Of a DNA stretch of 64,000 nucleotides, positions 1-64,000 are shown in pieces. A program made the translations under genes and the position numbers. The notes under the pieces were generated by a model that saw nothing but the letters and a program-made list of their open reading frames with translations, searched no databases and was not told the origin of the DNA. Position 1 is the stretch's first letter. Every line of letters begins with the position of its first letter. Origin of the DNA: Raillietiella orientalis (lineage: Eukaryota); contig JAYWIR010000101.1 of the NCBI GenBank assembly GCA_036172245.1, positions 1-64,000 of the forward strand. The letters are read 5' to 3'.

Positions 1-3000
1 GCTTGAAAGTTCGTTTCCGGGGGTCGGTTGTATTGGCGATGCGGCGCCCGCAACACCTGTGGGGTCGCGTTTTCCGTGAAGCCGGCCATTGACGCTGCCG
101 TGAAGGGCGTACGCTTCGATGACGACGGTCGGGTCGGTCAGCTGATTCTCAGCTGGTCCGACTCGATCGAATTGATCGTCACGAACGTGTACGCCTCAAG
201 CGGGAATGGGGGATACAGCGACCGTACCAGGTTGCTGGAAACCCTGAAGCGCGACTGGCTGGCCGATACGAACGTGCGGAAGGCACACCTGATAGCTGGG
301 GACTTTAATCTCCGTCTGCTGTCAGGTGAGCCCGAAGCACAAGAACGCACGGCCAACGAGTTGTGCGCTGCCATGCGCACGCGCAACTTGTTGGCGGACG
401 CGGAGGGAATGGACCGCAGCATCGACCACTTCTTCCTGGATGTCGAACTGTGCTCGCGGGTCGGCAAACGGGGAGAAGTTGCGTCGACGCTGTCGGACCA
501 TTCCAGGTTAATCGCCGAGGTATGCCCGCGCGATAAAGGACCCCCGGCCAAGGCGTGGCGGTTGCCTGGGGACTGGACGCGGCTCTCAGGAGCGAAGGAA
601 CACCTTCGCGAATTCCTGAGAGGCGTCACCCTCCGCAGTCTCAAAGATTGGGACCTTTTCAAGGCCTCGGTCCGCGAGTTCTGCGAGGAGTTCCCCCTGC
701 ACCGCCTGCCCCCCGGATTTGGGGAGGGGGTTTGGAACCATAGGGCCTATTTACAGGCCCGCCGGCACGAGAGAACCCCCAATGTCCGTCGCCTGGCCGA
801 ATATCGAGCCGGGGCCGAGCGCCAAGCCTGGCAATCCGGGTCGGCCAGCTTGCTGGACGACCAGGGCCGGGAGCGATCGGCCCCACCCGCGATCAGGCAC
901 CTCGTGCGGCAGTATTATTCCTCCCTCTACGCTAGGGTACCCCCAGAGCGGGACGCCTCGCGGCTCCTGCTTCCGGACGGAGGCCAGGCAATAGGGGAGG
1001 AGGAGAGGATCAGCCTCGACGAGCCTTTTTCTACCGGTGAAATTCTCGCCGGTATTAAAAGGCTTAAGAGGCGTAAGGCGCAAGGGGAGGACGGACTGCC
1101 TGCGGAATTTTTTCAATGCTTCGCGACAGAGCTGGCCCCCCTGGTGCTCCAGTTGACCGGGCTGATCCGAGACGAAGGCGACGTTCCTGCCTCGTTTCGG
1201 TCAGCCCGTGTGAGGCTCCTCCCGAAGGGAGGAGACCTGAGATCCCTAGGCAACTGGCGTCCGATCACAATTGTGAATACGGACGCCAAGCTGATCGCTG
1301 GACTGTGGGCTTCGCGTCTAGGACAGGTGGCAGACTCCATAATTAGCCCGGAGCAGACATACGCTGTTACCGGGCGAAGTATGGATGCCAACCTGTTCTT
1401 CGCGAGCACATGGTTCCATGTGCAGAGCTGCCTGAATGAAACTGGCGGAAAGATTGGCAACCCCACTTTGGGGCCGCCAGCTGGGCTGGGAATGGACACC
1501 CGGGCTGGGAAAGGGGCCCTAGCGATCGCGGTCGATCTCCATAAGGCGTTCGACTGCGTTGACCAGGAGCTACTGTTGGCGCTCCTGGGTCGCATGGGCT
1601 TCCCACCCTCCCTTCTCTCCTTCCTGCGCTCCTGCTGGCGCAACGCCATAATTAACATCTGCTTTTCCAGTCAACAGGTGTACGGCGTGCCGGTGCGGCG
1701 GGGCATACGGCAGGGCGATAGCCTCAGTCCCCTGCTCTTTAGCACCTACTTTGAGTTGGTGCTGAGAGCGTACAGGGTGACTTTGGCTGCCCTGCCCAGC
1801 TCGTGCCCCGGCACGCCCGCCGTAGCAGCATACGCGGACGACCTTCTGCTCATGTTGCCCATGTCCGCCCCGGCAGCCGCAGTCGAGGATTTCTTCGACC
1901 TGCTAAGTCGTGGGACTGGACTGCGTGTAAACAAGGCGAAGTCGTCGGTCGTACCGGTGGGTGCGACGTGGGTCGGACGGCCTGACTGGATCCGCTTGGG
2001 GATCATCACGGCCAGGTACCTGAAGTACCTGGGTGTCCCGTTGGAGGACTTCTGCCTCGCAGAAGCCTGGTCAGGTCGTCTCCAGAAGGTAGAGTTGGCA
2101 ATCGGACCGTTCCTGGAAGGCAAGTTCCTTCTGCCGGAACGGGCCGCGGTGTGGAGCGCCTTCGCGGCTCCCATCCTCCGCCCCCTGCTTTTTGTGTGCC
2201 CCGTCCCCCGTGACATTAAAAAGAGGACAAAAGACCTACTCCGCATCGCCCTCTGGGACAGCGGGAGGCCACGTGTGCCTCTGGATGATTTATGCACTCC
2301 TCGTCGGGACGGCGGTCTCGGCCTCCTGCCGCTGGAGCGCCTGAAAATACAGCTGCGATGGCGCACCCTCGCCATCGCAGCAAAGACATGCAGCACCCCT
2401 TGGTGCGCTCCGGCCCGAATCCTCGCCAGCCGTGTGTCCAGGACGCAAGGACTCGCGTCGTACCTTCTGTGCTCCGGCAGGAAGGTGAGAAGATGCGGCC
2501 TTCTTCTTGGGCGCATGGAAGCCCTGGTCAGAGACAACGGCTGGACGGTATGCAGCCCCGCCAACTCCTCCGCCTGGCTGGAGGAAACAGTTGCGACGTG
2601 GGCCAAGCTGAACCTCCAGACTTCCCCGGACTGGAACCGCCTGCGATTCGGCCCCAACGCCCGCTGCACACTGCGGACTACTCTGGAGTGTCCCGCCAGG
2701 AGCACGTGGGCGGAGACCACCCCTCTAGCTTCGACCCTGCCCTTCCTCCGGAGGGCTTTAACCAGCGGCCGCAAGCCAAAGTGGCAAGTCTCCTGCCGAA
2801 TCGCAGGCAAGGAGAAGAAGATGAGCGGTTGGACCATGGGAGAACTGGCGGATGCCACAACCCCGAGTGCTCTCCCTCGTGGACTCCGTAGATGGGGCGA
2901 GGTGCTCGGCATCCCGACGGATGACCTGAAGTGGCCCCCAATATTAATCGGATCCAGACTTCTCCCCCTTAAGTGGCAAGAGTCGGCGATGCTGCTGTTG

Positions 3001-3659
3001 CACTGGGGCCTAACCTGCAACGCGCGCCGCTTCCACTGAACGCGGGGAAGTGTAAGGCCTGAGTGTGCCAGGTGTGGGGACCGGGAATTGCTCCCCCACC
3101 TACTTGTTGACTGTGCTGCCCTCCGACCCCTGTGGGAACGGTTCGGGACGACCCTCGGGCTTAATACGGGCAGCGCGCCCAGAGACGTTCTTCGGCCCCT
3201 CTTCGTGCGGGACGCCTTGCAGCCCGCCGCAGCCCTCGCAGTCCTCTGCTGCATCCGGGGCATCGTGGCGGCCTGGAGCGACATTCGCGACGAAGGAGTG
3301 GATGCCAACGCAAGGGATGTCATCCCGTATACGGTCTGCTTCATGCGGAGAGCTGCGAGATGGCCCCATCTGGGAAGCATGAAGATGGACCTGGAGGGCA
3401 TCCTGCGAAGGATGGGCCCTCCTCCCAGTGGATTGTGATCCCTTCCTCTCCCTCCAAACTCTTTTTTTTTTTTTGTTTTCCTTATGTTTATTTTTCTTTT
3501 TGTTTTGATCCCTATCCCCCTCCACTGCCGAGGAGCGTCACGCCGGGCTGCGTCCCGGCGTCCCGGCAGATCCGGTGTTGTGTGGCCGTTAGTGGAACCT
3601 CGTACCACGTTTTTGCAGAGTTTTTTTCAATAAACGCCCAGGCGTACCCGGGTGACAAC
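1..3659 (+). mobile_element. El1: Tx1/L1-clade non-LTR retrotransposon (5' part outside window), ORF2 + 3' UTR
   Basis: APE motifs (NVYA, GDFN, IDH, SDH); RT motifs (GEDGLPAEFF, NWRPITIVN, KAFD, QGDSLSP, YADD, YLG); C-terminal C..C/H..C; T-rich 3' UTR; AATAAA at 3629; ends GGTGACAAC at 3659. Confidence 0.93.
28..3438 (+). pseudogene. ORF2 (APE-RT-Zn finger) of El1 with one premature stop
   Basis: ORFs 28..3039 and 3088..3438 are in frame. The TGA at 3037-3039 replaces the Trp of the HWTRG motif seen in paralogues. Confidence 0.9.
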
Positions 3660-4303
3660 CCCAAATCCCGCAGGTAGGCGATGCAGGGGGAACTGGAAGC
3701 AGAACTCCTGGACCGACCGCTTGAAGCGGTCCCAGTCCTGAAGTGTCTGCATCCTGAAGCTACGAATAAACGCGCGGAGGTGCTCCGCCGCGTCAAGAAA
3801 CTTCAGCCAGTCCCCTGGCAGACACCACGCTGACGAGGTGGGGCCCTTGTCGCGCGAACGCACTTCGAACATGATCCGACCATGGTCCGACAGCTCGGAT
3901 GGTACCTTGCCGCGCCTGCCCACCCGAGAGCATAGGTGCTGATCAAGGTACACGTGATCGATGCTGCTTTCCATGGCCGTGTCCCCGGCCAACAAGTTGC
4001 GCGTGTTCATTTCTGCGCACAACTCGTTGACGCGGTCGTTCAGTGTATCCGGCGCACCTGAAAGCAGGCGTAGGTTGAAATCACCTGCGATCAGGTGCGC
4101 TTTGCGAACTCCTGCATCGGTCAGCCAATCGCGTCTCAGGGCAAAGTAGAACTTCCTTCTTGCCTTCGCCCTCAACGCGGCGTTTCCGCTAGGAGCGTAT
4201 AGGTTGGTGACGACCAGGTCGATAGAGTCGGACCAGCTGAGAGTCAGCTGACCGACGCGACCTGCGTCAACGAACCGAACGTCCTTTATTGCGGTCTCGA
4301 TGG
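3660..4303 (-). mobile_element. X1: APE-domain fragment of a related element; host of the El1 3' end
   Basis: ORF 3627..4382(-) contains VGQLTLSWSDSIDLVVTNLYAP...GDFN...IDH...SDH...WDRFK. Confidence 0.85.
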
Positions 4304-4964
4304 CGGTGGGAAGGCAAACAAAAAGCAAGGGGCGGAGGATGGAGGCCGCTAAGGCGTTCCAAACCGCGTCCCGTTCCGGCAAGTGAAACTTTCCTTTCAG
4401 GAACGGGCCGATCGCCGTCTCGCCTTTTTGGAGGCAGCTGGACCACGCTTCCGCAGGGAACTAGTTACCCAACGGCACACCAAGGTACTTGAAGCACCTC
4501 GCCGTGGAAATCCCCAGTCCTGCTGCCCTGCCCACGCTGCACCTATTGGCACCAAAGACGACTTTGCCCTCTTAACCTGCAGTCCGGTCCCGCGGCTGAG
4601 CAGATCGGAAAAGTCACCCTGTACGCTCTTGCCGGGGTGGACATTGGCAACAAGAGCAGCAGATCGTCGGCGTACGCTGCTACGGCGAGCGTGCCGGGGC
4701 ACGAGCTCGGCAATGAAGCCAAAGTCCCCCTGTACGCTCTCAGCACCAACTCAAAGTAGGTGCTGAAGAGCAGGGGGCTGAGGCTATCTCCCTGCCTTAT
4801 GCCCCGCCACACCGGCACGCCATACACCTTGTGACCGCTGAAAGAGACGGTAATCATCGCATTCCGCCACCAAGAGCGCAGGTAGGAAATCAAAGAGGTT
4901 GGGAAGCCCAGGCGACCCAGAAGCTTCAAGAGGAGTTCCTGGTCTACACAGTCGAACGCCTTGC
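4304..4964 (-). mobile_element. X2: RT-domain fragment (KAFD to LLFVC); host of the A 5' end
   Basis: KAFDCVDQ...QGDSLSP...YADD on the minus strand; very similar to 17060-17720(+), including a shared frameshift. Confidence 0.85.
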
Positions 4965-5059
4965 GTGCTCCAGGGTGGACGTGTTTTCTCGGTGCTCCTC
5001 GTGCCAGGAAGTCTCCCCCAGTGCAAGAGTCGTGTGGTTCGGTGGTCGATCAGGCAGCG

Positions 5060-6709
5060 ATGCCTGACGCGACCACCAGGGATGGCCAGGGGGCAGCGGC
5101 AACGCCGTCCCCAGAGGCGATGGAGAGCCAGGGGGCGGCGGCAACGTCGCCCATAGAGGCGATGGAGGTGGGGGCATCCGCCCCCACAGAATCAATCCCC
5201 GCCTCAGCGCGGGCGTAAAGCGCCGTTGTGTCGGCGCCATCGCCTGCACCCGCGGCGGAATTGTCGGCCTATGTAGAAGAGGGGTACAACCCCTCATTGT
5301 TCTACAAGGTAGGCAATGTATATTCTTTAGAGAGCGCGCGCGCCTTCTCGAAAGGCATGCGCGCTCTCGATGTGAAAGAGGAGGAGCTCAGCGCTATGAC
5401 CATCCGCAGCGGGGGTCAGTACGTTGAGGTCATTTGCAATCATGCAGAGCTGGCCCAACGACTGCTTAGAACCCCCGTTGTGATGGGGACGCGCAGGCTC
5501 CTCCCCACTACGGCGGACCGCATAATGGTGGTCCACCTGTTAGGCGTAATTGCGCGAATGCGCAAAGAACAGGTTCGCGCCGCTTTGGAACAGTTCGGAA
5601 CGGTCCACGCGCAGTAAACGAAAGTAAGTCCTTTCGAGGACTACACGGGGCTGCAACACGGCCTCAGTGCTGCGCGCGTGACCGTTCGGGAGGGCTGCAC
5701 TCTTCCCCACAAACTGGTGGTCGAAGGCGAAACTGTCGACCTCTGGTATGTGGGAAAACCGAAATACTGTGGCTTCTGCAATACGTCGGGCCACCTCAAA
5801 AAGAGGTGTCCCAACGTGCAGTGCCAAGTATGCGGAACCATGGGACACACGAGAGAGGTGTGCCCTAAAGCGGCAGTGCGGGTGGTTTCCAAGAGAAACC
5901 TTAAAAAACGTGCCCGGCATCTGAAGAAAAGGCTGGCGGCGAAAGCTGCCGCGAAGGGTGTGCCACCCGCGCCCAAGGCCCAGGCCGCACCCGAGACCCC
6001 GGCGAACAATGCCGAACAAATCGAGGGAAGAAGCCAGGAGCCTGGGTGGCAGGTGGCTACGGCCAAAAAATCAAAGAAGGAGAGGAGGATGGAGAAAAAG
6101 CTCGCGTATCGCCAGAAAAAACAGCAGGCAAGCGAGCAAATTAAAGAATGCAGCGTTGTCGTCGGGCGTATTCCCGACCGCTGCGAAAAAGAACTCGCCA
6201 CAACCGACGACCACCCCTCTGTTGACTCTGTCAACAGCGAGGGGAGCGAGCCGGCGGCGGCGTCCGTCATCGACACCACCATCGATGACGTAGCCTTCGC
6301 GCGAGCCGCGGAGGAGCTGGCAGCCTCGTTGCAGCCAGAACCCTCCAAGGCTGGCAAGAAGGCCGTAAGGCGCCCGGCCTCCCCTCAGGAGTTCCCCACT
6401 TCCGACCCTGAGGTGGAGGCCGGAATTGCAGCCTCCGTTTCCACGGCACCGCGCAAGAAGGCTGGACGTAAGTCCACAAAGCCAAGGAAGCTCGTCTCCC
6501 CCGTCGAAGAAGAAGAGATGGCTTCCGCAAGCGAGGGTGCCATGAGCGTGGGAAACTCTCGGGACCCGTCGCCCGAGAGACTCCCACGCGCGGACACGGA
6601 GGGGATGGAGGGAATGGAGGCCGAACAGGTGCCTCAGGTGCCTGAGAAGGCCGAAACCCCCATGGACATCCCGCCCGCCTCGCAAGAGGCGGGCTCCCCC
6701 ACACCTTAA
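5060..6709 (+). pseudogene. ORF1 (gag-like, two CCHC knuckles) of A with two premature stops
   Basis: Contains YVGKPKYCGFCNTSGHLKKRC and CQVCGTMGHTREVC. TAA at 5216 and 5615 correspond to Trp in the intact paralogue 44894..46714(-). Confidence 0.88.
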
Positions 6710-6723
6710 TCTTCCCAGCAGTA

Positions 6724-8185
6724 ATGCCGGGAATCTCCTCCCGCCGTCGTCTGCGCATCGCCGTTTGGAACGTGAACGGCATGACAGACTCCGGCAGGAG
6801 ACGAGACATGGCCGCCCTTCTGGAGTCCTACGACCTTGCGCTGCTGCAGGAGATCCACGTGATCTCTGCAGAACAAGCGCAAGACATCGAACGGATCTCC
6901 GGAGGGCGGCTATGGTACAGGTGTGGGAGAGCGAAAAGTTGCGGTGTCGCCTACCTGCTTCGGCCAGCCGTCGAGACCGCGGCTCGGGGCGTGCGGTTAG
7001 ACGATCACGGTCGTGTCGGCCAGCTGACTCTAAGGTGGTCATACTCGATCGATCTGATCGTGACGAACGTGTACGCACCGAGCGGCGCGGACCTGATGAC
7101 CAGGAGGCCGAGGAAAGAGTTTTTCCTTGCCCTCCGGCGAGACTGGCTGACCGAAGCAGGCGTGCGGAATGCGCATCTGGTTGCAGGCGATTTCAACGTT
7201 CGCCTGAAACCAGATGGGCAGAATCGCGAGCGTGACCTGGTCAACGAGGTGTGCATGGCGGTGCACACCTGTAATTTGTTAGCCAGTGCACCAGGGATGG
7301 AAGACAGCATTGACCACGAGTTTCTTGACGAGCACCTGTGGCCTCGCGTGGGCAGGCGTGGCAAGTTACCGTGCGAGCTGTCCGACCATCGCCCACTAGT
7401 CCTCGAGATCCATCCGCGCGACAGGGGCCCCCCCTCGTCAGCGTGGCGGCTCCCAGGAAACTGGCTGAAGCTCCCGGACGCGGCGGAACATCTCCGCACG
7501 TTCATACGGAGCTTCGGGCTGCGGACACTCCAGGATTGGGACCGCTTCAAGCGGTTGGTCCAGGAGTTCTGCGACCAGTTCCCTCTGCACTGTTTACCTA
7601 CGGGTTTTGGGACCGGGGTCCGTAACGAACGAGCCTACCTGCAGGCCCGTCGTTACGCCAGGACCCCCGACATCCGCAGGCTGGCGGAATACAAAGCGGG
7701 AGCCGAGAGGCAAGCCTGGCAGTCCGGATGGGCCAGCTTGCTGGACGACCAGGGCCGGGAGCACTCGGCTCCGGCTAGAATACGGCAATTCGTGCGGCGT
7801 TATTATTCCTCCCTTTACGCCAGGGCGCCTCCGGAGCAAGATGCCTCTCGGCGCTTGCTTCCGAGCGGTGCCCCGGCAATAGGGGATGAGGAGAAGGAAA
7901 GCCTTGACGAGCCTTTTACCATTGGCGAAGTTCTTGCCGGTATCAAAAGGCTCAAGAGGCGGAAAGCACCAGGGGAGGACGGCTTGCCCGCAGAGTTCTT
8001 CCAGTGCTTCGCGGAAGAGCTGGCCCCCCTGGTGCTTCAGTTGACCAGGCTGATCCGAGACGAAGGCGATGTTCCCGCCTCGTTTCGGTCAGCCAGAGTG
8101 AGGCTCCTTCCGAAAGGGGGAGACCTCAGGGAGTTAAAGAACTGGCGTCCAATCACGATCGTGAATACGGACGCCAAGTTGATAG
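6724..8185 (+). pseudogene. ORF2 N-terminal half of A (APE + early RT)
   Basis: MPGISS...WNVNG...LQEIH...GDFN...IDH...SDH...PGEDGLPAEFF...NWRPI; cut by the B insertion. Confidence 0.9.
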
Positions 8186-8398
8186 TTGCCACCCGGTAAC
8201 GCCGGGGAGTTTATTGAAAAATTCTCCATAATTGTGGTAGAAGGCCCCACTACGGCCAAGACAACTGATCCTGCCGGGTTGCCGATACGCAGATCGGCGG
8301 GACTCACCTCGGCAGCGGAAGGGGGTGGGGGGAAAAACAAAAAGAAAAATAAAACATAAAAAAAAAAAACAAAAAGATTTTGGTGGGCGGGGAAGGGA

Positions 8399-11300
8399 TC
8401 ACGGTCCACTGCGAGGAGAATCCATCCTTTCCAGGATGCCCTCCAGGTCCGTCCGTATTCTTCCCAGATGTGGCCATCTGGTCGCAATCCGCAGGTAGCG
8501 GACTGCAAGTTCGACGGCATCCCTTTCGTGGCTCGGTCTTCCGACGTCACTCCAGCACGTCACAATCCCACGGACGCAGCAAAGTGCAGCCAGGGCAGCG
8601 GCTGGTCGCAGGGCATCCTACACGAACAGAAGCCGAAAAACGTCTCTGGGCTGGCTGCCCTCCTGGATGCGTAGGGAGGCACGAAGACGTTCCCACAGGG
8701 GCCGGAGGGCAGCACAATCAATAAGGAGGTGGGGGAGGGTTTCCCGCTCTCCGCACCTGATGCACTCGGGATTCACTCGACCCCTGGTCCAGTGGTGGCG
8801 GCGTGCGTTGCAGGTGAGGCCCCGATGCAACAGCAGAAGTGCTGACTCCTGCCACTTCAGGGGGAGGATCCTCGATCCAATCAATACTGGGGGCCACTTC
8901 AGTTCATCCGTCTGGATGTCGAGCAGCTCGCCCCATCTCAGGAGTCCACGCGGAAGGACACTTCGGGTCGTGGCGTCAACCAGCTGCCCCGTGGTCCAAC
9001 CGCTCATTTGCTTCTCTTTGCCTGCGATACGGCAGGAGACTTGCCACCTAGGCTGGCGGCTGCTGGAGAGCGCCCTCCTCAGGAAGGGCAACGCCGTTGC
9101 TGTGGGGGTTGTCTCCGCCCACGTGCTTCTCGCGGGACACTGGAGTATCTTCCGGAGAGTGCAGCTTGAATAGGCGCCGCATCGCAGGCAGTTCCACATC
9201 TCTGAGTTCTGCTCTTTGATCTTCGCCCACGTGCCAGCGGTCTCCTCCAGCCATGCGGAGGAGTTGGCGGGGCTGCATTCCATCCAGCCGTTTTCCTTTG
9301 CCAGGGTTGCCATGCGTCCCAGGAGGAGTCCGCATCTCTTGATCTTCGAGCCGCGGCACAGAAGATGAGACGCGAGACCCTCCGTTCCGGATACACGGCT
9401 AACAAGGAGTCGGGCCGGAACGCACCATGGGGTGCTCCATAATTTCGCTGCGACGGCCAGGGTGCGCCATCGCAGCTGGATTTCTACTCTCTCCACCGTC
9501 AAGAGGCCCAGACCGCCATCCCGACGTGGAGCACACAAGTCCTTCAACTGGACTCGGAGCCTCCCTCTTCCCCAAAGGGGAATCCTCAGGAGGTCCTTCG
9601 TCCTTTTTTTCATGTCTCTGGGGACGGGGCAAACAAAAAGCAGGGGGCGAAGGATGGGAGCCGCAAAGGAGTTCCACACCGCGGCCCGTTCCGGAAGCAG
9701 GAAGTTGTCATCCAAGAACGGGCCGATCGCCGTTTCCACTTTTCGGAGGCAGCCGGACCACGCATCCGAAGGGGAGTAATCCCCCAACGGCACCCCGAGG
9801 TACTTCAAGCACCTCGCCGAGGGGATCCCCAAACGGACCCAGTCCTGCTGCCCAGCCCACGTCGCACCGAATGGCACCACCGACGACTTCGCCTTGTTAA
9901 CCTGCAGTCCGGTTCCGCGGTTAAGCAGGTGGAAGAAATCCTCGACTGCCTTTGCCGGGGTGGACATCGGCAACAAGAGCAGAAGATCGTCGGCGTACGC
10001 TGCTACGGCGGGCGTGCCGGGGCACGAGCTCGGCAAGGGGGCCAACGTCACCCTATACGCTCTCAGCACCAACTCAAAGTAGGTGCTAAAGAGCAGGGGA
10101 CTGAGGCTGTCGCCCTGCCGTATGCCCCGCCGTACCGGCACGCCGTACGCCATTTGACCTCTGAAAGAGATATTGATCAGCGCGCTGCGCCAGCAAGAGC
10201 GCAGGTAGGTCAGTAGGGAGGGAGGGAAGCCCATGCGTCCCAGGAGCTCCAGCAGGAGATCCTGGTCCACGCAGCCAAACGCTTTATGCAGATCGACTGC
10301 GATCGCTAGGGCTCCCTTCCCCACCTGGGAGTCCTGTCCCTGCCCGTCTGACACCCCCAAAGCGGGGCTGCCAATCCTTCCCTCTTCCTTTTCTTCACTA
10401 CTCTGCACATGAAACCATGTGCTCGCGAAGAAGAGGTTGGCCTCCATACTTCGCCCGGGAACAGCGTAATTCTGCTCCGGGCTAATTACGGAATTGGCCA
10501 CCTGCCCCAGACGCGAAGTCCACAGTCCGGCGATCAGCTTGGCGTCCGTGTTCACAATTGTGATCGGACGCCAGTTGCTGAGTTTCCTGAGGTCTCCTCC
10601 TTTCGGAAGGAGCCTCACTCTGGCTGACCGAAACGAGGCGGGTACATCGCCTTCATCTCGGATCAGCCTTGTCAACTCAAGCACCAGGGGTGCCAACTCT
10701 GCCGCGAAGCATTGAAAAAACTCCGCAGGCAGGCCGTCCTCCCCTGGTGCTTTCCGCCTCTTGAGCCTTTTGATACCGGCGAGAACTTCGCCGGTGGTAA
10801 AAGGCTCGTCGAGGCTTTCCTTCTCCTCCTCCCCTATTGCCGGGGCACCGCTCGGAAGCAAGCGCCGAGAGGCATCTTGGTCCGGGGGCGCCCTGGAGTA
10901 AAGGGAGAAATAATAACGCCGCACGAGGTGCCGTATTCTAGCCGGAGCCGAGTGCTCCCGGCCCTGGTCGTCCAGCAAGCTGGCCGATCCGGATTGCCAG
11001 GCTTGACGTTCGACCCCGGCTCGGTACTCTGCCAGGCGACGGACATTGGGGGTCCTCTCGTACCGGCGGGCCTGTAAATAGGCCCTATGGTTCCGAGCCC
11101 TCTCCCCAAATCCGGGGGGCAGGCGGTGCAGGGGGAACTCCTCGGAGAACTCGCGGACCGAGGCCTTGAAGAGGTCCCAATCTTTGCGACTGCGGAGGGT
11201 GACGCCTCTCAGGAATTCGCGAAGGTGTTCCTTCGCACCTGAGAGGCGCGTCCAGTCCCCAGGCAATCGCCACGCCCTGGACGAGGGTCCCTTGTCGCGC

Positions 11301-11785
11301 GGGCACACCTCGAATATCAATCTGGAATGGTCAGACAGTTCCGACGCAACTTTCCCCCGTTTGCCGACCCGCGAGCACAGGTCGACGTCCAGGAAAACGT
11401 GGTCGATGCTGCTGACCATTTCCGGGAGTTCCCCTAACAATTTGCGCGTGCGCATGGCAGCGCACAACTCGTTGGCCGTGCGTTCCTGTGTGCGTGGCTC
11501 ACCTGATAGCAGGCGGAGATTGAAGTCTCCCGCTATCAGGTGAGCCACGCGCACGTTCGCTTCCACCAGCCAGTCGTGCTTCAGGCTTTCCAGGAACGCC
11601 GCGCGTTCCCGGTACCTGTTATAACCGCTCGGGGCGTATACGTTTGTTACGACGAGGTCGATCGTGTCGGACCATCTGAGAATCAGCTGGCCGACACGAC
11701 CGGCTTCGTCGAAGCGCACGCCCTTCACGGCAGCGTCGACCGCCGGCTTCATGGAAAACGCGACGCCGCAGGTGTATCGGGTGCC
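8399..11785 (-). pseudogene. ORF2 of B (APE from TCGVAF onward, RT, Zn finger); N-terminus at 14456-14640
   Basis: ORF 8618..11995(-) contains all RT motifs and CIRCGERETLPHLLIDC. One late premature stop at 8618; the frame continues to TGA at 8399. Confidence 0.9.
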
Positions 11786-14455
11786 GCCAGGTGAGGATGG
11801 TCTGCCTGCGGAGTTCTTCCAGTGCTTCGCGGCGGAACTCATCCCCCTGGTGCTGAGGCTTTCTGCGCTGATGCGAGAGACGGGCAATGTCCCGGCCTCG
11901 TTTCGCTCAGCAAGGGTGCGTCTGTTGCCGAAAGGCGGAGACATGCGCCATTTAAGCAACTGGCGTCCCATCACTTTGGTGAATGCGGACGTCAAGTTGT
12001 TCTCCAGGCTGTGGGTCGCGCGCCTGGGCAGGATCGCTGGATCCGTCGTAAGTCCGGAGCAGTCTTACGCTGTTCCCGGGCGGTCCATGGAGGCGAACCT
12101 GTTCTTCGCGCGCACGTGGCTCGAGCTGCAACGCTGCGTGGCGCACGACAGCCAGGCAACCGCATCTGCGGCTGCCGAGGCTAGGCGTCGCTGCATTCGG
12201 CCCGGGGAATCGCCGGGTGCCTTGGCGGTCGCGGTCGATCTCCGCAAGGCGTTCGATTGCGTAAATCAGGATCTCCTGCTGGAGCTCCTGGAACGCATCG
12301 GTCTCCCGGTGCACCTCGTGGCGTATTTGCGCGCTTGCTGGCGCCACGCGCTCATTTCCATCTCTTTTAGCGGCTGCCACGTGTACGGCGTGCCGGTGCG
12401 GCGGGGCATCAGGTAGGGCGACAGCTTAAGCCCGTTGCTCTTCAGCATCTTCTTTGAGTTGGTGCTGAGGGCGTACAGGCTGACGCTGGCCAACCTACCG
12501 AGCTCTTGTCCAGCAACGCCGTCCGTGGCGGCCTATGCTGACGACCTGCTTCTCCTCTTACCCATGACCACCCCGGCGTCCAGTCTCGAGGATTTCTTCG
12601 AGCTGATTCCCCGAAGAGCGGCCATGAGCGTAAACCGGAGCAAGAGCGTGGTCGTACCTATTGGTGCGGCGTGGGAGGGGCAGTCCGACTGGATCCGCCT
12701 GGGGATCCCGACCGCTTCCTCCATGCATTATCTGGGCGTTCCGCTGGGGAACATCAGCCCAGTGGAAGTGTGGTCGGACTGCCTTCGGAAGGCTTCGAAT
12801 GCCCTGAGCCCGTTCCAGCATGGGAGGTTCGTCCTGCCGGAGCGGGCCACGATATGGAACACCTTCGTTGCCCCTCTCTTGCGCCCCCTGCTTTTTGTTT
12901 GCCCGTCCCCCTACTCGGCCAAGCTCCAGGCGCACAGCCTGTTGAGGAACGCTCTGTGGGGACCTGCGAGGTCCAGGATCCGCCTCAAAGACTTGGCGGC
13001 TCCGCGTCGGGATGCTGGCTTAGGCATCCTGACGCTGGAGAGAATCGAGCTGCAGGTGCAGCTTCGGATGTTGGCCCTGTGCGCCAACCTTTGGTCCACT
13101 CCGTGGTGCGCTCCCGCGCGCCTGCTTCTGCGGCGCTGCACAGGCAGCGATGGACTTCTGTCGCTACGGCCGCACACGGAGCGCGCCACGAGAAGCTTCG
13201 GTTTCCCCTTGAAACCGCTGTACGGGCTCCTGGAAGCCCAGGAATGGATCTCCTGCCGCCCAACGAACTTTGAAGCCTGGCGGCAGGAACCGTTGCATGG
13301 CTGGGCAAAGCACCAGGACGTTTCCCTCCTGGAACTCCGTTGCGCTCACCACTCCCCGTACTGCACGGTGGATGAGGTGTGCAACAGTCAGGAGAAGTGG
13401 ACCCGCCTGGCCGTCACCCCCCTCGCCGACGCACTGTCAGCCCTCAGGGCAAGAGATGACAGTTGCGAACTGGCGAGATGGGAGGTCGCCTGCACCATCG
13501 CAAGAACAACGCGACCTATTGGCGGCTGGAAGACTTGCGAGCTGAAGGACGCCGCCACACCTCGCCACGTTCCGAAGGGTGTCCTCCGGTGGAGCGAACA
13601 CTTGAGTGTGCCCCTTGAAGAACTTGTGGTTCCTCCCTCGTGTTTGAACACTTCTGTGTTCCCCCTTTCGTGGAAGCAGGACGTGATTATGCTGGTGCAT
13701 TGGGGTTTTCACTCCAACCAGCGCACGAACCTTGTTTCCGGGGGAGTTGTCTCCCCAAACTGCAAGCAATGCGGGGAAGTGGAAACGCTCCCGCACCTGC
13801 TGCTTGAGTGCGGTGCCCTTCTAGGACTGTGGCGAAGGCTGGCCTCAGCTCTCCTGCACCAGGGGGACACCGCGAGGGTCTTGATGCGCCGCTTCTTCAC
13901 GCCAGGCGGCCTGTCATTGGGTGCTGTCGTTGCAACCGTGTGTTGCACCCGCGCCATCGACAAGGCCCACCGAGAGTTGGAGAAGCTGGCCATTTTTCGT
14001 CAGCCCACCGGATTAGCCAGCGCAAACATGTCGTCGGCTGCCCAGTGGGCCCATCTGCCACAGGGCGTAAGAAGAGAGATCGCCGGCATCCATCGCCGGT
14101 TTTGAAAGGAAGGAACGGACTAACCAAAGACCCCTGTCCCCTGCCCTCCATATTTTTCTTTTATTTTTTTATATAGTAGTGTGTTTGTGGTCCCTTCCCT
14201 CCCGTTCCGGACTTTCGGCATACCGACCTGCGTGTCGGGGATCCCACCCCCTTCGTCTCTTGTTCTCCCCTTTGTCCGGGAACCCTGTTCCCGGATAGTT
14301 TATAATAAATGCCCCGGCGCACCCGGGTGGGACTTTCGGCATACCGACCTGCGTGTCGGGGATCCCACCCCCTTCGTCTCTTGTTCTCCCCTTTGTCCGG
14401 GAACCCTGTTCCCGGATAGTTTATAATAAATGCCCCGGCGCACCCGGGTGACAAC
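11786..14455 (+). mobile_element. Element C, 5'-truncated, antisense within the APE of B
   Basis: Starts at PGEDGLPAEFF; ORF2 runs to 14105 with a premature TAG at 12414-12416; ends AATAAATGCCCCGGCGCACCCGGGTGACAAC. The host reading GGRL|...GTRYTCG is split around it. Confidence 0.92.
14209..14450 (+). repeat. Perfect 121-bp tandem duplication of the 3' terminus of C
   Basis: 14209-14329 and 14330-14450 are identical by reading. Confidence 0.92.
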
Positions 14456-14643
14456 CAGCCGCCCCCCTGCGATCCTCTCAATCTCCTGGGCGTTATCCCC
14501 GGTGATCACGTGGATCTCCTGCAGGAGTGCCAGGTCGAAGTCACTCAGGGTGGCTGCCGTGTCCCGTCTGTTGCTGTCGTCGCGCAGCCCGTGGACGTTC
14601 CAAGATGCCACACGCAATCGACGGTGACAGGCGAGCCCAGGTG

Positions 14644-16713
14644 TTATTCCCGGGAAAGTGGCAATGGGGCTCCCGCCACCTGGTCGGGCGGGACGGATGG
14701 AGGCATGGGGTCACCGCCCAGCGGTTCTCCCGCCTCCACGGGGGCCGATTCCTCGGCGGACCGTAACGGTTGAAGGGAGCATGCTTCACGAACCTGATTC
14801 CCCTCTTCCATGGGGGCCGATTCCTCGACTGCGTTGGACGGCAGGGGGGAGCGGTTCTCAGCTGTCTGCTCCCCCTCTTCCATGACAATCTTCTCCGCAG
14901 GCTCCACCGGTGGAAGGGGAAGGCAATGCCCTACCTGCTCCCCCTCCTCCATGGGGGTGGCCGGCTGCTCGGTGGCGGAGGGTGGGAAAATTCCTCCCTC
15001 TGTTCCCACGCTGCCGGCTTCCCCCTCGGCTGCCGGTGCGTCCCCCTCGCTCTTCGTCGGGATGGGCCTCTTGGGATTCTTGGACTTCCGTCCAGTCTTC
15101 TTCGGAGGCGCCTCCGTGGAAGAGGACGCACTTCAGGCATCCGGGTCGTGGTCACCTGTCGGAGGTGCCCTGGTCGCGGCCGGCCTTCGCAAGGCGTTTC
15201 GCGCCCCGTTCTCACGGTCGGCGAGTTCGGCCGCGAGCTCTTCCGCCGCCTGCTGGAAGGCGGCTTCGTCGATCGCGGCGAGCGCGTCGCGCGGTTCTCC
15301 CTCTGTTTGCACAGACGGTTCGCCTTCCGTGATCGCGTTATCGTAGGCGTCGACGCGGGGGATATCTCCCCCGGTGGCGGTCTCGGGTACCTCCACACGC
15401 TCCAAAGCGACCGAACATTCGCGGATCAACGCGCGGCGTTGTCTCCTATTCAAAGGAGACGTCGCGGGTTCCGCTGTCGACCCTTTGGTTTTCTTAATTT
15501 TCTTGGCTTTAGGCTTCGCCTTCTGCCAGCCTTCGCTCTTTTCAGCGTCTTCGGTAGATTCCACGACCGGCGTTTGCTGCACGGGCTCGTGCTCCGGCTG
15601 TGGGTTCCGTCTCACGGGTGCCTTCGCAGGCTTTTCCGTAGCCCCCGCGCGTTTCCCTTTGGCCTTTTTCAAGGCAGCGGGAGCCGGGGGTTCGCGCTTC
15701 GGGCACACTTTGCGGAGGTGGCCCTTCTCTCCACAGTGGAAACACTGGATGTGAGGGCATCGCTTTTTCAGGTGCCCTGTGGCATCACAGTGTCCACAGT
15801 ACTTGGGCTTGCCCACGTACCAGACGTCGACGGTCTCGTTGCCGACGTCTAGTTTGTGGGGTAGCCCACCGTTTTCGTGGACGGTTACACGCGCACCAGC
15901 CATGCCACTAAACAGTCTTCCGTAACTCTGGAAGACGTTGGGCTTCGTCCATAGCGCGTGAACCGTTCCGTATTTTCCGAGTTCCTCCTGCACGTCGGAT
16001 TTCGACATGCGGAGGGTGACTCCCGTGAGGTGCGTCACCACGGAGCAATCCTCCGTTACCGGGAAAACCTTTCGGCCTTCCAGTGTGATTGGCGTATTCA
16101 GGAGGTGTTGAGCAAGGCTTGCATTTCTGCAAGTCACCTCCACCCGTTGACCACCACTCAACACGGAAAGACCTTCCAGGTCTTCCTCTTTTACATTCAA
16201 CCGCTGCAACTCCCTTTCGAAGTTGCGAGCGGTGTTCCCGATAAACAGATTGCCTACCTTGTATATCAGGGACGGCTTGTATCCCTGCTCCAGGTAGGCT
16301 TTCTGCTCGACGAGGGCTGCAGGAGATGGGGCTGCAGCCACTGAACTCCAGGTCTTCGGCGATGCCGAAGACGCATTCCAGGGTGCAGGTGCCCCCTTTT
16401 TCAAGGAGGCGGTTGCGCCCTTTTCCAGGGTTGCGGTTGTCCCCTTTTTCAAGGGGGCGGTTGCACCCTGTTCCAGCGTGGCTTTTGCCCCCTTTTTCAA
16501 GGGGGCGGTTGCACCCTGTTCCAGCGTGGCTTTTGCCCCCTTTTACAAGGGGGCCTTTGCCCTCACTTCCGAGGCGGCGGTTGCCCCCTTTTTCAGGGGT
16601 GCGGCTGCCGTCGCCTCCGTGGGGGCGGTTGCCCCCACCTCCGTGGGTTGGGGAGAGTAGCAGGCCTCTCCCCCTCCTATATCCATCGCGGTGTCCTCAG
16701 GCATTTCTGCCAT
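14644..16713 (-). pseudogene. ORF1 of B (CCHC knuckles, N-terminal 8-aa repeats) with two premature stops
   Basis: In-frame ORFs 16543..16746, 15133..16500 and 14644..15009; contains YCGHCDATGHLKKRC and CFHCGEKGHLRKVC. Confidence 0.87.
16380..16640 (-). repeat. 24-bp coding minisatellite in B ORF1
   Basis: Repeated GGTTGC(A/C)CC...TTTTTCAAGGGGGC units encoding ATAPLKKG / AKATLEQG-like octapeptides. Confidence 0.8.
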
Positions 16714-16801
16714 TGGACACCGCAGATGCTTCACACACAAACACAATCGAAATCAACCGCTTTACACCAGGCGCGGAGGAGCGCTACAAAAAAACGTCCT
16801 C

Positions 16802-19159: not shown

Positions 19160-20330
19160 GCCGAAACCTGTGACGAGAGGACGTATTTTTCCTATGCTCC
19201 CGAGTGAGTCCACTGGTAGCGGGTTGTTTTAATGTTTGTTTTGTGTGGAACATCGTTGGTGTCCGATGGCAGCGATCCCTCAGGACACTACGATGGAGGT
19301 AGGTGTGGGGAGGCTTTTCCACCCCCACAGCCTACAGAATCAGTGGCATCCGCCCCGGAATCGCCCTCGTCGCCCAAGACGAAGAGCTGGAGCGCCATGG
19401 TGGCCGTGCCGAGCGCGGAAACCATGGCAGAGATGGCGGCCTACCGGGCAGCTGGGTACAAGCCCAGCTTGGTGTATCAGGTAGGCAATCTCTTTGACGA
19501 GCGAACTGCACGCGCATTTTCGAAGGCGCTGCAGAACGCCAACGTGTTAGAGAAGGATCTTGACGGTCCATCCGTGCTCAGAGGGGGTCAGCGAGTCGAG
19601 GTAGTCTGCAAGGACATCACCTTGCGCAAAGCTTGATTACTACCCCGCTGAACGTGGACGGACGCAAGATCCTACCAGTCACGATGGACCGCTCCGTAGT
19701 GGTCCATCTGACAGGGATCACCAGCCGCATGACGCGGTCTGCGGTTGGTGATCAGTTAAGAAAATATGGCGATGTTCACGCGCTATGGCCAAAGGCCACA
19801 ATCTTTGATGGCTACGATAGCCTTTTCGGAGGGCAGGCCGCCGCGCGCGTGACGGTCAAGGAGAGTGGGCTTCCCCACAAACTAGAGGTCAATGAAGAAG
19901 TCGTAGACATCTGGTACGTGGGGAAACCCCGCTTTTGTGGCTACTGCAATGCAGTAGGACACTTGCGCAAGCGGTGCCCGAACATTGTGTGCCACTTATG
20001 CGGGGAGGAGGGCCACGTGCGCCGCGTGTGCCCTAAACTCCCCACTCCGGTGCCCCCTGCTGCAAAGAAAGCGCAGGCAAAACGCGGTAAATTGGTCAAA
20101 AGACCAAAGAGAGATACTGGCCGGCAGCAGCCGCAAGCCTCCGTTCCTCCCACACAGGCGTCGGAAGAGAAAACTTTCGGAGACGAGGGATTACAGGACA
20201 ACTGGTGACTGGTTGAGGCCAGAAAGGAGAAAACGGTGCCCCCGCGGATCCCGCGAAAGCGGTGAAAAAGACAGCCGGCAAGGCGAAAAAACCTGGGCCG
20301 CTCTCGAAGACTCTGAGGGAATGTACGGTG
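19160..20330 (+). mobile_element. Element E, 5' UTR and frameshifted ORF1 only
   Basis: GGACGT at 19179; FCGYCNAVGHLRKRC and CHLCGEEGHVRRVC; B-like ORF1; fused to F at ~20330. Confidence 0.85.
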
Positions 20331-23300: not shown

Positions 23301-23455
23301 CCGCGGCTCGCGCGAAGGCTACGTCATCGATGGTGGTGTCGATGACGGACGCCGCCGCCGGCTCGCTCCCCTCGCTGTTGACAGAGTCAACAGAGGGGTG
23401 GTCGTCGGTAGCGGCGAGTTCTTTCGCAGCGGTCGAGAATACGGTCCACGACAAC
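20331..23455 (-). mobile_element. Element F (A/J family): ORF1 C-terminus, APE, RT; 3' end lost; interrupted by G
   Basis: ORF 21761..22888(-) MPGISS... is nearly identical to A/J; RT fragments continue to LWSTPWC. Confidence 0.9.
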
Positions 23456-35534: not shown

Positions 35535-35547
35535 GTCTTCCCCTTTT

Positions 35548-48645: not shown

Positions 48646-50006
48646 CGCACAGTGCCGACGTGTTTTCACGTCTCCCCGCGTTTGCGATCGAGCATCTTTA
48701 TGCGTGGGTTTTCCCTTGCACTTGTATGTTTCTTGCAAGTGAACGGAGCAGCGTTTTACAGCATGGCAACTTCTAAGAATGGTGTGGAGGAGACAGCCGT
48801 TGAGTCCAATTCAATTGGAATGGAAGCGACCGCATCCTCCGTGAGGGTTTCCTCGCCTTCGGTGAGGAGCTACGCCGCCGTCACCTCCCAGGGAGCAGGA
48901 TCCTGCGATGCTGAGTTGCAGGCTTATGTGGCATCCGGCTACACGCCCGCACTCCGTTATAAGGTCAGTGGGCCCCTTAACGGGAGGACCGAGCGTGAGC
49001 TCCACGATGAGCTCGTCGGGATCGGCGTTCAGGAGGAGGGCCTCCTTGCCATCATGCCTTCGGGTAGGATGAAATACACCAAGATACGGTGCAAAAACGC
49101 GGCACTTGTGCAGCGTCTTCTCCTTACTCCGTTGTCCATCGGTGGCAAGGAAGTCTTGCCTTCCGTGATGGACGACTCGTTTGTCGTCCAATTGTGCGAC
49201 ATCGAGCCAGAAATCTCAGACCGCGATGTCGTAAGTGTGCTGGCGAAGTTCGTCAACGTGCACGCTCTGTGGAGCATGCCAAATCCTCTAAAGGATTTGT
49301 TCTCTGTCCACATTGAACACGCCTCCGCGCGGATCTCCGTCGCGAACAGGCGTGTTGTGACCGAGGAACTGCAGATGAACGGCACGGTCGTTCACCTGTG
49401 GTTTCTAGAGCAGAGTCGCGCGGGCGAGCAGTGCGGCAAGGAGTACACCGAATGAAGGAATGTCTTACCCAGAAATGCCACTATTGCAAAGAAACCGGGC
49501 ACAAAATAAAAAAGTGCCCGGTCCTTGCAAAGAAAAGGGCAGCAGCGAAAGTTCGTCGCGTTCAAGAGACCAACGAACGAAAGGCCGCTGTCCCCAAGAA
49601 AAAGCAGTGTCCGCGGAGTATTGTCAAAAGAGCCAAGCAATACGCATGAATACAAAAGGCGTCCCCGCCCGCAACGCCCCAAAAGGGAGAAATCGCGGCA
49701 GGGAAGTCAATGAAAAAGGGGCGCGAGCGCTCGACGCGTGCCGGGGCCTCCCTCGCTGCCGTACTGGGAAGCAGTTCTCCAAGCCAAGAACCGGGAAATT
49801 TCCTAAGACCCTCGGTAGGGAAGGTAGGACAGCAGGATGATCGCCACAGGGAGAATACTTCCAGCTCTAACCCGTTGTCCCTTCCCAAATCGGCAAAGTC
49901 CCACTCCTATGCAGGGGCCTCTGCAGCGGCTACGAAACCCGTTGCAAGCAGCGGCGTGCAGCGCAAAAAAGCGCTGCAGGCAGTCGCCCCTTCACTGACT
50001 CGACAA
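48646..50006 (+). mobile_element. Element K, 5' UTR + degenerate ORF1
   Basis: CCGACGTGTTTT 5' motif; AELQAYVASGYTPALRYKV is similar to I/G ORF1; CHYCKETGHKIKKC. Preceded by a ~38-bp minus-strand F-family APE scrap (48608-48645). Confidence 0.82.
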
Positions 50007-51237
50007 TTTTCCCTAAGTCCCAAAAGGGGTGGGGTAAATTTATTTGTTATTTTTTAAAACACATTCATTCTACAATCACATTCATACAACATACCCACTT
50101 TACATCACTCTGAAGTCCTTAGGGATATTAAAAGTTCTGCTTTCAGGCTAGGTTTCCAGATGTTTGTTCCCGGGCGTCGTCTTCAATCCTCTTCAGGATG
50201 AATCGGTAGGTCCAGGCATGGATTCGTCCACAATTCCTGATACCGATCTCCTTCGTGATGAGTTTTTGAAGGATCTTTATCGGAGGTGCGGCTCTCCTGG
50301 CTTTCCTCATCTTCCACCACCACACAAGTGTGGCAGTGATGAAGACGGCAATGGTCGTCCTCACTATGGGATTGTAACAGGTAACATTACCAACTCCCTG
50401 AAACATCCCGGCGAGGATCTCCATTGTGGAGCTGGTGGTGAGTCCTATGATCCTTTTGAGGATCAGCCAGTCCTGTAGCAATGTGGGACACGTCAAGACG
50501 TGAAGACTCGTGTCGGTGTTGCCACATGCTGCGCAGTCTCGATCTTCCCGTCTTCCGGTGAAGTACTGAAGTCTGGACCCGCTTTGGATTCCTCCATGAT
50601 AAAAAATCAGGAGTTGTCCTGCGTGTCCGGTGGAAGGTCACTCCTCCAGAGCGTAGTTCCAATCGCCAACAGGTTGATCAGGTCTCTCCCGTAGCGATCG
50701 GCGGCTTCTTGGAGGCACTGATGTCTCGGTCGTCTTCTTTGATGAGTCTTCGGAGGTTTTTTTTGGGTTACCGTAGACTACGCGAGGTCGTCGTAGTTGA
50801 TTCACACCTCGCGGGTCATGTGGGTAAACCTTGCTAACATCATCTCTATATACCGAAGTATACGAGTGTGGTGTAGGTACCCTCCTCTTCTCCACTCCTG
50901 GATTCGATGCAGGGTAACTCTGGACCGACGGTAGATCAGCTTCTCGTGTCCAAAGGGAGCGCAAGCATCCAAGGGAACACCAGGCCCGACACCTTCTGCC
51001 AGAGTTCTCTGCTTCGCGGCACGATCTTGATTTTGTGCTTACGCACCAGCCGTTGCTTCCTCCTCCAGGTTGGGTCGATGGATGTCCACTGTCCTGCTCG
51101 GCCTTGCAGCGCAGTCATCAGGTTTTTCGAGTTGTTCAGCAGCAACGCGTGGGCCCTATGCGCCGCATACGGCCAGTCATCCCAGTGAGTGGCAATGTCC
51201 AGGATGTGTCGCGTATCCATGATTTCCATGGAATGTG
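50007..51237 (-). mobile_element. D2: 5'-truncated copy of family D, antisense within ORF1 of K
   Basis: MEIMDTRHILDIA and TCPTLLQDWLILKRIIG match D ORF2; 3' end AATAAATTTACCCCACCCCTTTTGGGACTTAGGGAAAA. Confidence 0.9.
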
Positions 51238-61719: not shown

Positions 61720-62073
61720 GACTGCTTGGGGCCTAGAGAATTCTGGCGCATTGGTAAGCTCCAAGGAGAAATTCAATACTGAATAGTAAGTAAAGATCAT
61801 TCGGATCGGTGTTCGAGAGGAGGAACACTTTGCCATCATGCCTGCGGGCAGGACTGAATATACGAAGACACGGTACTCAAACGCGGCACTCGTGTTGCGT
61901 CTTCGGGGAGGGAATGCCCCTTCCCAAAGTTCCTTTATCGCAAAAATTCCGGGCACGGAAAAACGAATTGCCCGGAACTTGCTAGAAAAAGGTCATATCG
62001 GTACTTTCACACCGGTCAAAGAGACCACAGCAGAAAAAGCCGCTGCGCTTCCGAAGAGGTCGGGTCCGCAAAG
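61720..62073 (+). mobile_element. K-family ORF1 relic; host of M
   Basis: GATCGGTGTTCGAGAGGAGGAACACTTTGCCATCATGCC aligns with K at 49020-49060. Confidence 0.7.
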
Positions 62074-63515
62074 TTTGTTACCCGGTCACGGCGGGACGTT
62101 TCTTGTTATAAACTAGCTGCAAACAGTTGTTTCCAACCAACGACTACAAAAACCAACAAGGGAGATCCCCCACTGGCACGCAGACCAGGAAAACGGAAGG
62201 GACTAGGAAAGAACATAGAAGAAAAACAAAAAAAACAAATAGGAGGAATGGGCCAAGGAACTTTGGTAATGCTCCGTATTCACCGGAAAAAATAAAAAGT
62301 AAAAGCATCAAAGGCACTAAGGAGAAAATGGGAAGTGGGGAGCCAGAACAAAAATAAAGTGAACAGGGGAATGCAGGAAGATGACCGGGTTCGTCGTTCC
62401 AAACCGTGTATCATACGGCGATAAATGCCAGTAAGCTCCTCCGTTGCATTTTCGTCCAGGTGTCGCCACCCAGCTGCTGCTCTGACGAAGTCGGCTGCCT
62501 TCCTGGCGACACAGCATCGCTCAACAGTATTGTCCAGCACGTCTCGGACCGTGACGATGACGCGGATGCAACCAACTGTAGAAATCATTGGAGCCGTCGA
62601 AAGTCCGTGGGCTTGGAAGAAACTTCGCACCACTTCTCGGGCGGTGACCCTCGGTAGCAGGAGTGCTGCTTCCAACTTCCGCCAGGGTTCCTGGAGGGCA
62701 CTACAGTCCAAAACAAGGTGCACAAAAGACTCCGTCGCACCGCACCGGCCACAGAAGGGTGAAGCCACCCCACCGAATACTCGGTGGCGCCGCTTGTTGT
62801 AGCGCAAGCCCCAGTGCAACAAGAGAAAGACGCCTTGCTTCCATGCAAGGGGAAACTTCGAGCCGTCGAAACAGCAGGAAGGGATTAGAAGTTCCTCCGG
62901 GGAAACACCAAAAGTTCTTCCCACCAAAGTAACCCATTTGGTGTAGCACGAGGAGTGGCGGCATCCGCAAGCTCGCTCGTGGCCCATTGGCCAAGTGGTT
63001 TCGTTATTCCTGCAATGGTGCAGGGGAACTCCCACCTTGACGGAAAGCTACTGTCTTCTCGAAACTCGAGGGAACACAATGCTCCGGCAAGGACGTATCG
63101 GCCAGGGAGGAAAACTTCACATCGTCATGCATCACATCTTGAAGTGACCAAGGTTGAAAGTGACGCAGGGAGGGAAGATTTTCTAGGCTCATTCCTAAGG
63201 ATGCAGCCAAGCAATCAATGGATTATTGCCGCCAAGCATTGTAGTTCATTGGGCGGCAGGAAATCCATGTATTTGCTTCCAACATGGTGGTGAGCTCCCT
63301 CAAAGGATACCCAAATCCCTGTCTCCTGTGAAGCATGTCTGTCACCAGGGAAAGAAGTCCTTCGCTGCCGGCACACCTCCGTAGCAGGATGCGCGCGGGC
63401 GCACACAGGAGGGAAGTCTATAGCTCGGCACACAGTGCCAGGATCCGAAACTGCACTTGCAGTCCGATCCGCTTTATCGTCAGGATGCCAAGACCGACAT
63501 CGCGGCATGCGATGA
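62074..63515 (-). mobile_element. Element M, 3' part of ORF2 + 3' UTR
   Basis: FPLAWKQGVFLLLHWGL...CGRCGATESFVHLVLDC; 3' end AAACGTCCCGCCGTGACCGGGTAACAAAC. Confidence 0.85.
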
Positions 63516-64000
63516 CGTCACCGCAGTGAGTGGACGTGTTTTTGTGGAGCTCCCGAAAACCGTTTTTTTCGCGGGTGTTTGTGGTGTTTTTTGAGCGGTT
63601 GTTCCTGGGCAGAAATGCCCGAGGACGACGCCAACACGGCCTAGGGGAGCGAACGAGCGTCGTCCCCCCAACCCATGGATGTGGGCGCCATCTTCCCCAC
63701 AGATTCGTCCCCCGCCCTGGCGAGGGCTTGGAGCGCGGTGGTGGCGGCGCCTGCGCCACCCCCCGCAGAGGAACAGCGGGCCTATGAGTCCCACGGATAC
63801 AACCCAGCCCTACTGTATAAGGTAAGTGGGCTTTATTCTCTTGCGATGTTGAGAACGTTTGCCGCGGAATTTGAAAAACTGAAAGTGCCGGAAGAAGAAG
63901 TTCTCGGCCTTTCCGTTCGCAGTGGCGGTCAGCTAGTGGAGCTGAACTGCAAAACTGCAGGAATGACTCAGCAGTTGCTGAGATGCCCGGTGACCGTGAA
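63516..64000 (+). mobile_element. Element N, 5' UTR and ORF1 start (runs off window), antisense to M
   Basis: GTGGACGTGTTTT at 63530; AYESHGYNPALLYKV homologous to A/B/E ORF1. Confidence 0.82.

Follow-up and report, generated by a model that had tools for sequence, protein, structure and literature searches.

Antisense, strand-alternating nesting in a cluster of L1-superfamily LINEs on a Raillietiella orientalis contig

The first 64,000 nucleotides of contig JAYWIR010000101.1 of Raillietiella orientalis (assembly GCA_036172245.1), the whole stretch analysed here and called the window below, carry at least 17 pieces of long interspersed nuclear elements (LINEs) of the L1 superfamily, recognised by tblastn, self-BLAST and a census of element termini (Table 1). 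The first ~51 kb (~55-62% G+C) are LINE sequence almost throughout, and the pieces fall into at least five related families, several of them at 65-80% identity, plus one distant family, D. The strand and residue range of each piece were obtained by tblastn with the open reading frames (ORFs) of the window, the breakpoints by self-BLASTN and the 3' ends by a motif census of termini, and the junctions were re-derived independently of the labels used in a preliminary description of this DNA. This one window is the whole data set, and events were counted within it only.

The LINE host is readable for thirteen insertions (El1, A, B, C, D, D2, G, H, I, J, K, M and N), and each of them lies antisense to it (two-sided binomial p=0.00024). 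The ~14 antisense junctions of the preliminary description were all recovered within a few bases. In the same way, 10 of the 11 visible 3' ends adjoin a LINE on the opposite strand, the exception being that of A. Our analysis also uncovered two same-strand adjacencies that were absent from the earlier list. At 4304, X2 meets X1, both on the minus strand, and ORF2 residue 815 jumps to residue 108; at 19160/19161, the 3' terminus of A touches the complete 5' terminus of E, both on the plus strand and with no copy of a target site duplication (TSD) between them, making this the sole tail-to-head, same-strand end-to-end pair in the window. Neither adjacency is demonstrable as a sense nesting, and even when both are scored as sense the count becomes 13:2 (p=0.0074). 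Within the window, the antisense rule is real and statistically supported.

Six of the insertions (B, C, D, H, I and J) are true nestings with collinear host flanks, the host residue numbers resuming across each, and TSDs of 10-16 bp were found in five of these six. The two copies agree at 15/15 positions for B in A, 16/16 for D in I (33464-33479 and 39202-39217), 10/10 for I in G, 10/11 (one mismatch) for J in G and ~11/14 (3 mismatches) for H in G, the values for J and H having been read by eye from the printed flanks. Five TSDs had been described before (15, ~20, 10, 16 and 13 bp); five were indeed found, but the ~20-bp one was not reproduced. C in B has collinear flanks and no TSD, with ~10 bp of B missing, and no TSD was found for D2, whose 5' side (51238 onward) is not K. 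The flanks of G are non-contiguous in F coordinates, the left one lying in the ORF1 C-terminal region of F and the right one being homologous to F 22697-22734; the resulting ~760-bp overlap could be a very long TSD or could reflect two different F-like copies.

Nesting reaches four levels in two series, F, G, I, D and X2, A, B, C, each element hosting the next and the strand flipping at every level, as the preliminary description had it. Since the strand flips at every level, an absolute-strand cause, for instance the direction of replication or a uni-strand cluster, is excluded, again in agreement with that description; the absolute strands are balanced, with eight elements on the plus and nine on the minus strand in a tally made by hand from the tblastn map. 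The insertions show that every incoming element took its primer from a nick in the sense strand of the LINE copy that it entered. Priming on the host sense strand gives an antisense newcomer, and its repetition gives strand alternation over four levels.

It is very improbable that this pattern arose by chance in a small sample, or from errors of assembly or annotation among so many repeats. It does come from a single window, and the only reads available for comparison were those of one independent run (0.15 share of sampled words), whose contigs are short and give no validation of the assembly; 188 of the 292 placed contig pieces of that run are 90-95% alike to the window. Seven joints differing from the window were obtained from these contigs: one empty site of B, two that join opposite strands, two skips of ~15.6 kb and two short skips (148 and 85 bases). 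The opposite-strand joints and the ~15.6-kb skips were rejected as real junctions, homologous positions of paralogous copies having been joined. The empty site is a contig that joins 8170 to 16802 with 13 shared letters, corresponding to an A-like copy without B. This contig and the p values at 13:0 and 13:2 speak against accident or artefact, and misassembly does not yield exact TSDs together with resuming reading frames.

Table 1. LINE pieces and associated features of the window, in order of position (RT, reverse transcriptase; snRNA, small nuclear RNA; residues are those of ORF2 unless stated otherwise)
Feature	Position	Strand	Description
El1	1..3659	+	5' side cut by window edge; residues 85-1148; AATAAA-hairpin terminus at 3659; 81% identical to B
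X1	3660..4304	-	Endonuclease-region fragment, residues 108-320; tblastn 62% identity, E=3e-75; hosts El1 3' junction
X2	4304..4962	-	RT fragment, residues ~594-815; hosts A 5' junction (4963-4965) at K-A-F-D codons; inverted relative to the RT region of A, to which it is 95% identical
A, 5' part	4963..8184	+	Complete 5' terminus, ORF1, ORF2 N-terminus
B, 3' part	8185..11787	-	Residues 97-1148, 3' terminus at 8185; inside A; 15-bp TSD ACGCCAAGTTGATAG
C	11788..14455	+	5'-truncated, from residue ~437; inside B
B, 5' part	14456..16801	-	ORF2 start, ORF1 with CCHC knuckle, complete 5' terminus at 16801
A, 3' part	16802..19160	+	Residues 499-1148, 3' terminus; first 15 bases are the TSD copy
E	19161..20333	+	Complete 5' terminus, partial ORF1; directly behind A 3' terminus
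F	20334..23455	-	Residue 881 back to ORF1 C-terminus; J-like (93%); both ends internal; flanks G 5' end
G, segment 1	23456..26362	+	5' terminus, ORF1, ORF2 to residue ~379
H	26363..28677	-	5'-truncated, residues 543-1148; inside G
G, segment 2	28678..28967	+	Residues ~373-470
I, 3' part	28968..33479	-	3' terminus, ORF2; I full length, inside G; 10-bp TSD TCGCTGATGC
U4 snRNA	33478..33615	+	Rfam RF00015, 90.5 bits, model positions 1-138 of 138; fused to D 5' end
D	33616..39201	+	Distant LINE; ORF1 CCHC, ORF2 APE and RT; 27% identity to B ORF2; U4+D unit inside I; 16-bp TSD TTAGCTATCGCGAGAG
I, 5' part	39202..40690	-	ORF1 of 387 aa, complete 5' terminus
G, segment 3	40691..41081	+	Residues ~467-594
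J	41082..46640	-	Full length; inside G at K-A-F-D codons
G, segment 4	46641..48607	+	Residue 594 to end, 3' terminus
Scrap, 38 bp	48608..48645	-	ORF2 N-terminal region, F/J/A-type; 35/38 positions as in F; hosts G 3' end and K 5' end
K	48646..50004	+	5' terminus, ORF1
D2	50005..51237	-	5'-truncated D copy (83% identity); 3' end on K
K-like ORF1 fragment	61793..62073	+	E=1.8e-8 and 5e-5; hosts M 3' end
M	62074..63515	-	Degenerate LINE 3' part; hairpin terminus CCCGCCGTGACCGGG at 62074
N	63516..64000	+	5' terminus, ORF1 start; adjoins M; runs off window

The elements are APE-type LINEs of the L1 superfamily, inserted by target-primed reverse transcription (TPRT) with TSDs. When 20 long ORFs were scanned against Pfam, RVT_1 was found in seven (six above the curated cut-off, the seventh just below it) and the APE-type endonuclease domain Exo_endo_phos in five (four above the curated cut-off), and in ORF2 of B, El1 and D the APE domain precedes the RT. 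A zf-CCHC match in ORF1 of B, a zinc knuckle as in L1 elements of the plant/algal type, reached 22.9 bits (cut-off 20.8), those in ORF1 of D and I being weaker and below the cut-off, and zf-RVT (PF13966) was seen at 17.7 and 23.1 bits, under its cut-off of 27.5. The best match of B ORF2 in the PDB is human LINE-1 ORF2p (E=8e-43), with R2 reaching only E=2e-13. A search of 5.8 billion proteins returned one unnamed relative at 66% identity, all other matches being at most 31% identical, and a protein-based metagenome scan found no relative. A single locus retrieved by a pattern scan with the 3' terminus was rejected as a chance match without LINE homology.

A motif scan recovered nine canonical 3' termini, made of AATAAA, a CCC..GGG hairpin and then GGGTGA(C/T)AAC, in eight elements, the excess arising because the terminus of C is doubled by a tandem repeat. 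That repeat is an exact (100%) 121-bp duplication (14209-14450), of which copy one ends at ..GGGTG, short of the terminal ACAAC. It may have arisen through slippage or restarting of the RT, through a recent duplication or as an assembly artefact. The terminus of M is a degenerate version of the canonical one, and those of D and D2 are of a different type. Although the hairpin is conserved, compensatory changes were seen at none of its pairs (0/4). No poly(A) tail, otherwise a mark of the L1 superfamily, is present at any of the nine canonical termini, which stand directly on the flank, whereas Zepp, a LINE of green algae, has a poly(A) tail at its 3' end. On the 5' side, A, B, E, G, I, J, K and N start 8-18 nt upstream of a common GGACGTGTTTT-like motif, which may be an internal promoter or initiator common to the families. 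These eight 5' ends (4963, 16801 on the minus strand, 19161, 23456, 40690 and 46640 on the minus strand, 48646 and 63516) are taken as complete, so that eight of the 11 elements with a classifiable 5' end of their own count as full length; C, H and D2 are 5'-truncated. GCTCC(T/C)CG comes after the GGACGTGTTTT-like motif at all eight. Short tandem repeats occur in the 5' or ORF1 N-terminal regions of B (16376-16636, 24/48-bp units), A (5085-5167, 42-bp units) and D (33827-34011, 27/48-bp units).

The preliminary description had noted no obvious target consensus and had proposed self-targeting defined by orientation rather than sequence. Across families, the lack of a consensus stands: no common motif was found among the 11 sites compared, the 13 events use at least nine distinct sites by our own reading, the B/El1 and D/D2 pairs share no site within either pair, and the codon phase of the nick sites, followed by hand, is inconsistent. 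Two pairs, however, each reuse one host site. A and J, which are 96% identical over their first 1.2 kb and ~96% identical to ~2.8 kb, endonuclease region included, start at the identical host nucleotide in the K-A-F-D codons of the RT (host sense GCAA[A/G]GCGTTCGA). The two hosts, X2 and G, share only 67% DNA identity, so A and J hit this site independently. C and G, members of one family (82-85% identical), likewise end on homologous host sequence, here in the ORF2 N-terminal region, the 38-bp scrap being homologous to the site in B where C ends; this pair is the sole standout among 55 pairs of 3'-flank sites (z=6.5). The octamer at the J site occurs six times on sense strands and never on antisense strands. 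Hot spots thus exist and track the endonuclease-bearing part of the element, the remaining events being scattered. To say that sequence plays no part was thus too strong, because two insertion pairs reuse the same host sites; what holds of the proposal is the antisense placement in 13/13 events with a flip at each level.

Site reuse of this kind, together with the 6:0 strand distribution of the octamer, would be expected from pure site specificity, in which the endonuclease or ORF2 protein recognises asymmetric sites in conserved LINE coding regions, as in R2 or Tx1. R2/R1/Tx1-type LINEs target ribosomal DNA, snRNA genes and microsatellites. Compared by description, they share with the window elements a fixed orientation to the target (13/13) and the reuse of sites by related elements (A/J and C/G), whereas the targets here are the coding sequence of other LINEs and number at least nine. 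We consider it unlikely that site specificity alone accounts for the pattern: it fits four of the 13 events well and not the remainder, which are spread over sites without a common motif, with only C/G standing out of the 55 pairs and with B/El1 and D/D2 differing in site. It would also require six or more families, D included, to have picked same-strand sites independently, for which the chance by our own arithmetic is ~0.5^5. Base composition was likewise rejected as the source of the bias, the skews of the host sense strands being small (GC skew 0.014-0.041, AT skew -0.05 to +0.10) and the counts of the ten primer-end 4-mers near equal (1747 on sense and 1601 on antisense strands).

Tentatively, with a little less than even confidence, we favor a self-nesting cluster of L1-superfamily LINEs that grows by ordinary TPRT and in which a polarity cue and family hot spots together set the antisense rule. 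A host-side polarity cue would make the sense (non-template) strand of the resident copy the productive one for priming; such a cue is favored because the distant D follows the rule twice, and the same relative strand is chosen by six or more families. The likeliest cue would be sense transcription of the resident copies, which might lay open the non-template strand or cause template-strand intermediates to be aborted, as transcription-coupled repair does with human L1. Family-specific preferences of the endonuclease or ORF2 would add the hot spots, at the K-A-F-D codons for A/J-type elements and in the ORF2 N-terminal region for C/G-type elements.

In transcribed genes, transcription-coupled repair disfavors the sense insertion of human L1, and does so at the insertion stage (PMC5717806). 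A bias against sense insertion resembling this one is a known alternative with the same geometry as an R-loop model. In the strictest form of such a model, only the non-template strand of copies that are transcribed or R-looped would serve productively as primer, resulting in strictly alternating nesting across unrelated LINE lineages. We regard this form as doubtful, and its nicking step, at an R-loop or on the non-template strand as proposed in the preliminary description, is pure inference. If it were true, arrays of this possibly centromeric kind would automatically build inverted repeats as they grow, which could feed RNA-based silencing.

Several points weigh against the polarity cue with hot spots that we favor. 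Sense transcription of the resident copies is an assumption, and the hosts X1, X2, the scrap and M are fragments in which promoters are not visible. The human L1 precedent is a modest bias and not 13:0. The exact reuse of sites means that sequence recognition alone can fix the orientation in at least four of the 13 events, and the two same-strand adjacencies (4304 and 19160/19161) are left without an explanation. The sample is 13 events from one 64-kb window, and since this window is mostly LINE sequence, self-targeting is inseparable in it from region-targeting.

The bias could also have arisen after insertion. Sense-nested copies might be lost by recombination or single-strand annealing, or be invisible, while inverted ones persist or are even favored as sources of double-stranded RNA. 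Recombination between families does seem to occur, as A is a mosaic: it is ~96% J-like to ~7763 and from there only ~70% identical to J and 94-95% identical to B (B/El1-like), which points to a recombinant between LINE families. The switch lies ~420 bp upstream of the B insertion site, and the nesting of B in A therefore stands. The X2/X1 junction (815 to 108 on the same strand) could moreover be the remnant of a sense arrangement. We nevertheless hold post-insertion filtering to be improbable. In most events insert and host come from different families, at 65-75% DNA identity, and D is without DNA similarity to its hosts; with such cross-family events (27% protein identity for D, 67% DNA identity for J and G), removal of sense copies by homologous recombination is unlikely, above all for D. 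Had filtering been at work, neutral insertions in sense by D-type or other foreign families would be expected to remain, and none is seen.

Among known systems, the closest in description, as distinct from phylogeny, are Zepp and ZeppL of the green algae Coccomyxa and Chlamydomonas. These GC-rich LINEs are of L1 type, have an ORF1 resembling gag and an ORF2 with an RT, and build nested clusters by inserting into copies already present (PMC8226300, PMC3446292, PMC9940879); nesting of Zepp gives tandem arrays mostly of 3' ends (PMC8226300). In contrast to that description, neighbors in the window alternate in strand, full-length elements prevail (8/11 of those classifiable) over tandem truncated 3' ends, and several families coexist; the 3' ends, with AATAAA and a hairpin, have no A-tail. 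The orientation of nesting is not mentioned in the Zepp/ZeppL passages searched, and no statement of antisense nesting by Zepp-type or other LINEs was found in the literature searched, which excludes the primary Zepp papers of 1997-2003. We therefore describe the window as a Zepp-like self-nesting cluster with an antisense, strand-alternating rule, of which an earlier description is possible. Human L1 also shows orientation bias in nested and genic insertions. In PMC2836564 (Table 3), L1-in-L1 insertions are sense-biased 2.2:1 (21,559 vs 9,899), which is put down there to sequence features intrinsic to L1 and Alu, whereas the bias in the window is antisense, near absolute and non-compositional.

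Self-nesting LINE clusters are the putative centromeres of several green algae, which raises the question of how their elements locate one another. A near-absolute antisense rule would give concrete access to the way APE-type LINEs choose their targets and would explain the dense inverted repeats in such arrays. It is of note in that it is common to distant families, stands alongside site reuse in the most conserved RT motif and is opposite to the human L1-in-L1 bias.

Element D carries a further peculiarity at its 5' end. A complete U4 snRNA on the same strand is fused head-on to it, and the U4+D unit lies within one 16-bp TSD pair. U6/L1 template-switch chimeras are a known precedent, in which a full snRNA is likewise joined 5' of a LINE in the same orientation within one TSD; the unit in the window differs from them in carrying U4 and in having an almost complete LINE part. 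Its appearance is that of a chimera made by template switching of the RT, as in U6/L1, or of a 5' transduction. Template switching could explain the A/E tail-to-head pair too.

The remaining part of the window, ~51900-61700, is a stretch of low GC (41-47% G+C) with a CpG observed/expected ratio down to 0.64 and an excess of TpG/CpA. None of 15 ORFs from 51.2-62.3 kb had a Pfam match at or above the family cut-off, two being sub-threshold (E=0.03-0.05), and a protein search with one ORF of the low-GC stretch gave no match. The stretch holds inverted arms of ~730 bp (51886-52615 and 59392-60108, 74% identity), with AATAAA-like palindromes at their inner ends, and between the arms lies one degenerate RT fragment on the minus strand (53990-54449).

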